64,000 nucleotides of DNA, taken from contig CM082579.2 in NCBI GenBank assembly GCA_040954595.2, positions 8,359,625 through 8,423,624 of the forward strand, written 5' to 3'. Numbering within the stretch: position 1 is the stretch's first letter; the number at the start of each line of letters is the position of its first letter. Both the position numbers and the translations under genes were made by a program. The stretch is from Balanoglossus misakiensis. Its lineage: Eukaryota > Animalia > Hemichordata. The notes beneath the pieces were generated by a model. The model was given only the letters and a program-made list of their open reading frames with translations. It had not been told where the DNA came from and did not search any database. Below, in pieces: positions 18,301 through 21,300 of the stretch.

Positions 18301-21300
18301 GCCCGTTTCAGACTCAACGTAGTGAATTAAGATATGTCACTTTGTTTTCATAAAAAAATCACAACTTGGCGGCCATTCTGAATTGCACATTTAAGACAAT
18401 TATTTTCAAGTTTTAACGAAAATTTTATTTTGTCTTCATAAAACGATAGTTCTGCGGAAACGATGTTCTGTTCTTTACGTTTTCCAGATAGGATCATGGT
18501 ATTCGGGCAATACGGGATCATTTTCAATAGGAAATGATGGACGGATACTGGACCCATATGAAGAGTACAACTTCAATAGAACACTCGTCGTCACCACTAT
18601 TCTAGTAAGTGAAAAATATGTTCCAATGGATTGAATACCAGTCAATAGAGAACGATTGCTATATCAGGGGACACGTGCCCGAACACAAATATGCTGTTTC
18701 TGTAAACGTGTCACCAGTTATTGCTGGACAATAACAATGTTATTGGATAAACATGCAGCATCATTCGTGATATTTCTGCGCAAACGATATAAGACAAAAA
18801 GTAACGAAAGGACCATTTCTTGCAGGCTGAACCGTACTACATGCTGAAGAAAAACTCCGACGAGTTCGAAGGACAGGACAGGTACGAAGGGTACTGCGTG
18901 GATCTCCTGGAGCGCATCACCGAAATAGTGCCGTTCAAGTACGAAATGAGACTTGTTAGCGACTCCAAGTACGGGGCGTACAATACAGGCAAAGGCCGGT
19001 GGGACGGTATGATCGGCGAACTCATTAACGGGGTAAGTGTGCTCTACCACCGAGGCATGATTGCTGATTGAATTGTCACATGATAAGGACTGTTATCGCT
19101 GAATTTCCATTGCCTTTAATTTCGCCACATTAATCTCATAGAACGAATTCGACTGAAAGGGGACTATGCATGCATGCCCTATAAATTGAATCAATATCCA
19201 TACATATTTTATTCTCCTGAAATAACACGACAGGCAAGCTCGGGAAAGTCGGTTCGTGTTAACATGAGGTGCTCCTGGACCAGTAAAAGTATTGCAAACA
19301 TACATCACTGATTTTTTTTAATTTGCAGGAAGCTAACCTGGCGGTGGCGCCGCTAACGATCACATCCGAACGCGAGCGCTATGTGGAGTTCAGCACGCCG
19401 TTCATGAGCTTCGGCATCAGCATCATGATCAAGAAGCCGCAGAACACCAAGCCGGGGGTCTTCTCGTTCCTCCACCCGCTCTCGCACGAGATCTGGATGT
19501 GCATCGTCTTCGCCTACGTGGGCGTCAGCGTGGTGCTGTTCCTGGTCAGCCGCTTCAGCCCCTACGAGTGGCACACGGTGGACTCTCCACCGCCCCTGTT
19601 CAGTGACACGGGGGACCGGCAGGAGATGGCCAACGACTTCGGCATTTTTAACAGTCTCTGGTTTTCACTCGGTGCTTTTATGCAGCAAGGTTGCGATATT
19701 TCGCCAAGGTTGGTTTGACTGGGGTGTGCAGTGCTTTTACGGTCTTTTTTTCCACTCAGCAAGCTATAATTGTTCTAACCGCATGGTGTCTTCGTTCAGA
19801 AAAAAAAAATGGCGCGTAGAACTTATTTTCAGTAGAAGGCACGTGGACTGCAGAGGGCGGTGTAAGCTTATAGTTTGCTGCGCGGTATAGGATGCATCAA
19901 AAGCTTTTTACCGTGTGTTGTAGTTGCCAAGGCTTTTCTTTCAAACGACGCAGATATTTTAGGCGGGAAATCTAGGCTGCTTTTTTCCAAACCGGAATGG
20001 GACAAAATAATAAACCGCTGTGATTCGTCTTGGAGTTATATAGTGAGTCAGAACAATTACTGCCGGACTATATACTTGTAGAGTAACCATGATTCATACC
20101 GCAGATTTCTTAACAAAAGATATTTTCCACCATCTACAAAGATGTCCGTTTACATCACCTTCGTCGTCGTCGCCACCGCCACCACCGTCGTCGTCACCAT
20201 GATTATCGTGTCGTCGTCTTTACTGGATGCCGTATATTTTGAGACAATTTTGCTAAAAAAATATACATATCTGATGACCTTACGAATACAATTAAACCTA
20301 CTGAAGACAGTCATTCTCATTTTGTCGAACTAAAGGCCATGTGACATCAACTAGAAGCAGTCAAGCTGAAATGAAGATGGGGCATGAATTGCAGTGGTTT
20401 TATCTTTATTTCCAGTATTCTATATCTGCGTCATTTGAACAGATAAGGTCAAAGCTATATCATATACACCATGCATGCAGCTGAAGACCGTAAAATGGCT
20501 GGCTGAACATTTTGTGCTCGCGTTTGAAAGAAACCTTCCTTAGGGGGATATCCTCTCTTGCTGCGTAGCATTTTGCGGTCGTTGACTTCAAAGTTGTGGT
20601 GCATATGGCAACAGCTTGTAACTTCATTCACGTACACCATCAGACGCGCTCAAATGCGTTCATACTGTGTCTTGTGTGTGGTTTCTTAATATTAATAGCT
20701 ATATGCGTGTGTTGTGCTGTGCAGTGAATCTTAGTACTTTACGGAAAAGATGTCTGATGGTCTATATCTCATGAACAACTTGTAATCCTTATTTCGGTTT
20801 CAAATGTCTGGACATATGCAGACTGAATACTTTAATGAACGAAGAAAATAAGGAAAATGTTCCGTAAGAATCTGCTGATTGCAATTCGTAGAACGACACT
20901 CGACAATAATTTAAAAAAGCCAAAACTGTTATAAATCAAGCACCGTTATTTCACAATCCTCTTCACAGATGTTACCATTGGAATTGACGGCTAATTATCT
21001 TTTAACGAAAGTCTTAAGGGTTTGGCTCGTATGACTCCAATACATAATACACAGAAACAGCCGATTCTTAACTAAAATGCTAATTTGATGACGTCATTAC
21101 TTTAATGTATTCTCTCTACCCTGCCAGGTCCCTCTCCGGTAGAATTGTTGGTGGTGTTTGGTGGTTCTTTACTCTTATCATTATATCCTCGTACACTGCT
21201 AATTTGGCTGCCTTTCTGACAGTCGAGAGAATGGTGTCACCCATAGAGTCGGCTGATGATCTCAGCAAACAAACGGAGATTGCCTACGGGACGCTGAATT

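Follow-up and report, generated by a model that had tools for sequence, protein, structure and literature searches.

Editing at the Q/R site of the AMPA-receptor subunit GluA2 is the textbook example of an essential recoding event. In the sections of PMC5654063 consulted, the mammalian GluA2 substrate is described as having a Q/R stem of 28 bp, separated by an internal loop from an inducer stem of 43 bp that begins 45 nt downstream and is edited at +60 and +261-263. Across 50 vertebrates three helices are conserved, helix II nearly as strongly as helix I, and the variable spacer of the intron is dispensable (PMC3553965, in the part consulted). The kainate-family subunit GluK2 (GRIK2) is also edited at a Q/R site, through an intronic ECS 1885 nt away, with a sequence and structure unlike those of GluA2 according to the same sections of PMC5654063. 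A pore Arg encoded in the genome, as in teleost gria2-beta and acoel Q2-Arg subunits (excerpts of PMC4018279 and PMC13520880), has the same biophysical outcome as editing but is hard-wired, and the 18 genomic-Arg loci examined here have no duplex. With respect to origin, an August 2026 study of bilaterian AMPA receptors holds that Q/R editing arose in vertebrates (PMC13520880, in the parts seen), and a 22-species survey found recoding sites to be mostly of independent origin in each lineage (PMC9989829, likewise consulted in part).

The locus described here resembles vertebrate GRIA2, as portrayed in excerpts of PMC3553965, PMC5654063 and PMC7045468, in having the Q/R site in the same exon and codon, a near-identical exon end and donor, and a predicted duplex over the 5' splice site; furthermore, the ECS core agrees at 9 of 11 nt and the arms of the putative inducer match in order. 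The worm gene differs in that it belongs to an invertebrate, is older than the GRIA1-4 split and has editing that is predicted, whereas GRIA2 is a vertebrate gene; in addition, its ECS lies at +878 rather than at about +320, its inducer helices are shorter and its helix I extends further into the intron. An additional arm (C/C2 below) occurs both in the window (the whole 64-kb stretch of DNA analysed) and in a vertebrate GluA2 locus, L001, whereas the passages of PMC3553965 consulted call the bases just past the ECS unstructured. Because the GluK2 ECS lies 1885 nt away, the long spacers of the window and of the annelid-like loci discussed below (+765 to +2174) appear workable. What is new, as read from sequence, is a GluA2-like editing architecture in an invertebrate together with an extra conserved arm, editing itself being a prediction. 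A full-text literature search, with most subscription papers outside its scope, found no mention of an invertebrate AMPA Q/R duplex in the text it reached, and term look-ups in the searched portions of PMC7761149, PMC5225553, PMC4018279 and PMC8257547 were negative.

The hemichordate gene and its exon/ECS duplex

The gene was delimited by tblastn with the P. flava protein, by exon joins and by a tree, and comprises the following parts relevant here.

354..25279, + strand: AMPA-receptor gene of an enteropneust hemichordate
19329..19708, + strand: pore exon (M1-M2), equivalent to Gria2 exon 11, whose end falls within an Arg codon split AG/G
19709..21127, + strand: intron after the pore exon, 1419 nt, holding all editing-like elements
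22090..22204, + strand: single flip/flop-type exon, 115 nt

Sixteen exons (354-22996), all with canonical AG/GT ends, joined in frame to give 908 codons with no stop, and more C-terminal exons lie downstream. The product was 79% identical to the P. flava protein and 42-54% identical to vertebrate, amphioxus and most protostome rows, and the protein of the pore exon was 94% identical to Ptychodera flava, 90-91% to Glandiceps talaboti and 72-74% to vertebrates and amphioxus. In a quick tree of 30 rows, restricted to AMPA-type receptors with kainate and NMDA rows left out, this full iGluR gene grouped with AMPA subunits as sister to Ptychodera (99) within a hemichordate clade (100). The suspicion of an earlier sequence-only reading that the source was an invertebrate was thus borne out by protein identity and tree, which place it among the enteropneust hemichordates; its count of one flip/flop-type exon also held, as tblastn found no second copy within the window.

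Several features of the gene and its surroundings were recorded in passing. Two C-terminal exons, 24144-24251 and 25220-25279, encode a P. flava-like tail and an HTQV-stop ending as in Glandiceps and amphioxus, and are probably alternative tails; the HTQV-stop ending is a putative PDZ-binding motif. Third positions are 92% G/C in the opening 95 codons of the pore exon (19332-19616), and the shift within this exon (0.92, then 0.58) was dropped as evidence, the other exons varying from 0.33 to 0.79. At the position of the vertebrate R/G site (21822-21830) there is a Lys codon split AA/A, and a hairpin sought at 21824 folded weakly (-16.3 kcal/mol, 111 nt). A Pfam scan, with matches in 4 of 41 ORFs, identified as neighbours the membrane region of a Cys-loop neurotransmitter-gated channel (33951-35011, + strand), a RING plus NHL-repeat protein (36871-38010, - strand) and a CCDC22 N-terminal domain (46293-46796, - strand).

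The putative editing site and the two strands of helix I are as follows.

19683..19685, + strand: Q/R codon CAG, with predicted editing site A19684 opposite U20562 and further predicted sites at 19687 and 19688
19679..19716, + strand: 5' strand of helix I, formed by the exon end and the non-consensus donor GTTGGTT
20531..20567, + strand: ECS, 3' strand of helix I, whose core at 20557-20567 gives the 9/11 match to mouse

The pore loop reads FMQQG in the DNA; the Q/R (Q1) codon, close to where the pore exon ends, is CAG in the genome and has its A at 19684, as the sequence-only reading had stated. That reading had also proposed a duplex of about 36 pairs between 19671-19716 and 20531-20572, passing through the donor GT at 19709-19710 and including an unbroken 12-bp run (19679-19690 with 20556-20567). 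Both were recovered, the duplex with 36 pairs and the run with two of its pairs G-U, and the core stood up to folding of 19600-20650, where the partition function gave pairs 19680-19689 probabilities of 0.99-1.0; the outermost pairs (19671-19675 with 20568-20572), on the other hand, were disfavoured in that fold and overlap another conserved element. At equilibrium the donor was covered by the duplex with P 1.0. Both letters at which the ECS core departs from mouse still pair, C20564 preserves the critical C that faces the -2 G and that, when mutated, leaves almost no editing, and the predicted fold contains what an ECS of this type requires, namely at least about 28 bp across the site with that C in place. 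The exon end and donor (19674-19715) share 40 of 42 nt with L001; identity of this kind was given little weight, since a GluA1-like locus, L002, has 37/42 with no duplex.

By itself, the pairing between exon and intron exceeds chance modestly, about 1% of shuffles doing as well. The expectation that the region as a whole would fold better than shuffled controls failed, the 19650-20600 fold being ordinary (z -0.83; 5/20 shuffles as good). With RNAduplex and fixed windows around A19684, 37, 21 and 19 of 300 shuffled introns did as well, as against 1/300 with the post hoc boundaries of the sequence-only reading; a loop-limited duplex forced through A19684 (+/-40 nt) was equalled in 11 and 14 of 1000 shuffles. 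In a -12..+35 window, picked after the duplex had been seen, A19684 ranked second among 713 exonic A's (14 exons), and 4 of 3000 random A's matched its duplex. The best duplex among the 713, 19369-19400 with 20497-20524 (-45 kcal/mol), connects the 5' portion of the pore exon with the linker that separates element B (below) from the ECS; such pairing would cross helix I and may have arisen by chance. The curated covariance models of Rfam gave no matches.

Intron elements shared with vertebrate and annelid-like loci

A metagenome scan for relatives of the pore exon yielded 80 loci, none more than 75% identical to the exon, of which 59 had the pore motif by pattern; the exon pattern had no matches in genome and viral contigs. 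Removal of duplicates, loci with no donor GT and loci with less than 40 nt upstream or 350 nt downstream left 37, including the window. In six of these, namely the window, L001 (vertebrate GluA2 by protein), L004 (GluA3-like by protein) and L006, L015 and L021, the duplex across the site reached z <= -3 and was equalled by 0/100 shuffles; all the others had z > -2. Together with L007, the last three are nearest to annelid receptors (86% to Lamellibrachia) and group with annelids in an exon-only tree (94). By codon, strong duplexes occurred in 6/18 Gln, 0/18 genomic-Arg and 0/1 Leu loci, counts in which kin loci are not independent and in which a distant ECS could escape on several short contigs (L007 has element A and ends 1285 nt past the site). 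The GluA3-like locus (L004:1868-2335) has the complete structure, with its ECS at +401, helices II and III and arm C; the structure would thus be older than the GRIA2/GRIA3 split. In L005, which is paralogue-like to L004, the structure is absent.

Other features of these relatives are noted here in their own right. Many annelid-like loci (L018-L031, L042-L078) encode Arg at the Q/R position in the DNA (CGT or AGA), some database proteins reading Arg-Arg; none of those tested has the duplex, and they adjoin structured Gln loci in the tree. In L006 and L015 helix I is mismatched beside the A of the site. Among fragments assigned to classes at 75% identity or more to a named row, with donor type read from the residues after ISPR, Leu/Phe-Val (a GTTGGT/GTTTGT-type donor) followed in 23/27 annelid-like Gln fragments and 1/22 arthropod-like ones (P0121-P0489, counted by hand); the same read-through is also common in vertebrate GluA3/GluA4-like fragments and is therefore only a proxy for the donor.

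Beyond helix I, these six introns have in common a series of short elements in one order, with A after the donor, then A2 and, a long way further 3', B2, B, the ECS, C and C2. In the window these are as follows.

19733..19746, + strand: element A, forming the 5' arm of helix II through 12 Watson-Crick pairs between 19735-19746 and 20484-20495
19781..19789, + strand: element A2, 5' arm of helix III; 9 pairs with 20466-20474
20462..20475, + strand: element B2, 3' arm of helix III; 14/14 nt identical to L001
20484..20497, + strand: element B, 3' arm of helix II, with an invariant AAAA at 20492-20495
20569..20580, + strand: element C, a conserved arm directly 3' of the ECS, complementary to B and so a rival of A:B
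20597..20607, + strand: element C2, complementary to B2 and so a rival of A2:B2

The pairings A:B and A2:B2 would fit helices II and III of the GluA2 inducer, with which the order A, A2, B2, B, ECS agrees, and by shifting the mouse numbering with the ECS offset in L001 the AAAA of element B appears to correspond to the +261..+263 editing hotspot. Helix II has flanks in which both strands have changed between lineages while pairing persists (A-U, G-C, C-G), and helices I and II had P >= 0.98 in equilibrium folds of 4/4 loci, those of the six that were short enough. In the window helices II and III have 12 and 9 pairs plus short flanks, versus about 22 and 19 in L001; the arms pair at P 1.0 in the predicted fold, with about 21 core pairs versus the 43 bp of the mouse stem, and element A lacks one consensus base. 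In the annelid-like loci A2, B2 and C2 have shrunk to a short CATG-type core. The sequence-only reading had noticed the exon/ECS helix alone; the putative inducer helices and the 3' arm had escaped it.

Because likeness among ECSs follows from likeness among exons, homology had to be judged on those parts of the intron that have no pairing with the exon. L001 contains exactly the mouse ECS word TTTGCTGCATA, published in PMC7045468 (consulted in part). An HMM built from L001 and L004 only had the window, at 20456-20608, as its best untrained match (26.9 bits, E 6e-7 in 352 kb), as against a highest score of 9.1 bits in 30 shuffled windows, and an HMM of the initial 600 nt of both vertebrate introns, with no boundaries chosen, gave the window E 1.8e-6. 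With the ECS omitted, a model of B2 and B alone still ranked the right place top (13.9 bits, E 0.005; shuffled best 11.8). Model R1, built from five loci with the window excluded, had a single match in the 64 kb (E 6.6e-7), and across 81 sources the window was the sole untrained plus-strand match of the profile. Elements of 11-14 nt are 90-100% identical to the vertebrate and annelid-like copies, the rest of the intron being unalignable. The intron elements of the window thus have sequence homology to those of vertebrate GRIA2 intron 11, and we regard the hemichordate-vertebrate relationship as close to certain at the level of sequence. The intron segment complementary to the exon end, as first noticed in the sequence-only reading, is the counterpart of the vertebrate GluA2 ECS by profile and ECS word.

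The link to the annelid-like loci is based on an identical B, near-identical A and C and the same order around a strong duplex, and by these sequence features we consider it probable. The deuterostome HMM scored L006 at 4.0 bits and L021 at 10.0 (E 0.07; shuffled best 6.4), the L021 match lying on the minus strand of the B-C hairpin, which is symmetric, and an annelid-trained HMM matched the window only at E 2. A B-gap-C pattern, defined post hoc, occurred in 4 of 80 loci, once in the window and in 0/100 shuffles. The choice between ancestry and convergence had been left open in the sequence-only reading; the shared intron-only motifs favour common ancestry, possibly pre-deuterostome, and it is likely from these motifs that the Q/R editing signal is far older than the vertebrates.

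Arm C was complementary to B in 6/6 loci (66/66 cells paired), with one two-sided change and two pairs with one-sided changes, a covariation score reached by 171/500 column shuffles because most columns are invariant. In nested folding of free RNA the probability of B:C was 0.0; once the exon, donor and A were blocked it rose to 0.86-1.0 in 3/4 loci and was 0.0 in L001. Arm C may act either as a kinetic competitor, enclosing the ECS in a local hairpin, or as a pseudoknot stacked on helix I, an arrangement that the nested-folding programs used cannot represent. We discarded the idea of a triple helix formed by the three arms A, B and C, since both A and C appear to be antiparallel complements of B. 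The passages of the GluA2 literature examined held no description of a 3' arm C/C2. Separately, a 32-nt inverted repeat (19940-19971 with 20408-20439) lies inside helices II/III and lengthens the intron rod.

Evidence on editing and competing explanations

With fair confidence we hold that the hemichordate pore exon and intron carry the elements of GluA2 Q/R editing, likely by descent, and that the predicted fold would let ADAR2 edit A19684, recoding Gln as Arg in a fraction of neuronal transcripts. Judging from sequence and folding, B and B2 would pair back to A and A2 during transcription, closing an 800-nt loop and bringing the ECS beside the exon end, where it would then pair over the Q/R codon and the 5' splice site. 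By analogy with GluA2, helices II/III would be the editing inducer that recruits ADAR2 and helix I the catalytic substrate, and the weak donor, buried in the duplex, would delay splicing until editing is done. Edited subunits would be expected, from GluA2 and from the Saccoglossus Q1R mutant, to reduce both inward rectification and the Ca2+ effect. More speculatively, C and C2 could serve as second, local partners of B and B2, forming an ECS hairpin or stacking on helix I, and this pairing would tune the edited fraction or free the donor. Editing at the Q/R site is favoured because the CAG context and the pairing are GluA2-like and the structure is absent from all genomic-Arg loci.

Published data bear on this reading in several ways. 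Table S5 of PMC9989829, in the parts consulted, lists 166 recoding rows for P. flava, a close relative in which ADAR recoding is therefore active, and the same paper reports both ADAR1 and ADAR2 in most of the metazoans sampled. The P. flava AMPA gene, 1g14761 according to the portion of the PMC13520880 supplement seen, had no rows among the parts of Table S5 searched (all 46 places reading "glutamate receptor" and the first 30 of the 166 P. flava rows). That table was drawn from whole adults at depth >= 10 and level >= 0.1, and an edit in neuronal transcripts could therefore be missed. In the same parts of the table the B. belcheri AMPA gene had no Q/R row, though another site there was called, S754G at 0.875, which might be an R/G-type site, and zebrafish gria3a had no Q/R site. 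As the GluA3-like L004 is fully structured, the lack of a gria3a row in that portion suggests that structure need not mean Q/R editing. According to the sections of PMC13520880 consulted, P. flava and Saccoglossus have one AMPA gene each, and an engineered Q1R relieves the block in the Saccoglossus receptor; editing would thus supply a second pore type to an animal with probably a single AMPA gene. Neither an FMRQG nor an FMQRG string was found in 12 of the 13 supplementary files of that paper, in which line breaks could hide one. All three hemichordate database proteins retrieved have Gln at the Q/R position, being RefSeq genome-based models, and protein searches found no transcript-derived hemichordate protein with Arg there.

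These data leave room for a different function of a homologous structure. Its old role could have been splicing control, in which the weak donor is hidden, the intron is held and the intronic AAAA is edited, with high-level Q/R recoding a later development in vertebrate GluA2. We consider this the chief rival, though a less likely explanation. It would account for the missing gria3a, P. flava and B. belcheri rows, for a donor that lies within the duplex at P 1.0, for the helix I mismatches that adjoin the A in L006 and L015, and for a competing arm C, which points to a switch over a static substrate. However, the best-kept pairs sit on the Q/R codon itself, 0/18 genomic-Arg loci retain the structure, as expected if Arg had made it redundant, and the published table covers whole animals with cut-offs on depth and level.

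Far less probable is that an ancestral editing structure is in decay in this animal, the pairing being a relic on which selection no longer acts. The shorter inducer helices relative to L001 and the base missing from element A would suit such decay, but the near identity of the short elements across lineages, amid an intron that otherwise does not align, and the continued pairing of the lineage-specific flanks speak against it. Slightly less probable still is chance complementarity or a convergent origin of the ECS, in spite of a within-window significance of only about 0.01-0.1 for fixed windows and of the fact that an alike exon forces any ECS to resemble another. Elements B2, B and C lie outside the pairing with the exon and yet match vertebrate sequence in the same order and place, so that for hemichordate and vertebrate this explanation is already unlikely; for the annelid-like loci the HMM results (deuterostome model at most 10 bits, E 0.07; annelid model on the window, E 2) are in its favour. 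A vertebrate source or a chimeric assembly is scarcely credible, for despite the 40/42 nt identity around the site the exon protein is 93-94% identical to P. flava versus about 73% to vertebrates, the 16 exons join in frame, and the vertebrate likeness is limited to short motifs.

Returning to a homologous structure that permits Q/R editing, we tentatively extend it, with less assurance than the hemichordate case itself, to a Q/R editing structure with ECS, inducer and a competing 3' arm as a folding switch. Such a structure would stem from the protostome-deuterostome ancestor, would still edit in acorn worms and annelids, and would have been repeatedly lost or replaced by hard-wired Arg after duplication. 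A structure common to a hemichordate, vertebrates and probably annelids would take the editing substrate back to early deuterostomes or bilaterians, and the shared intron structure would offer a rare example of non-coding RNA whose sequence can be aligned across phyla. It also yields editing predictions at single-nucleotide resolution. Furthermore, since the arm 3' of the ECS is present in the vertebrate GluA2 locus as well, it becomes a candidate control element that may act in mammalian Q/R editing and splicing.
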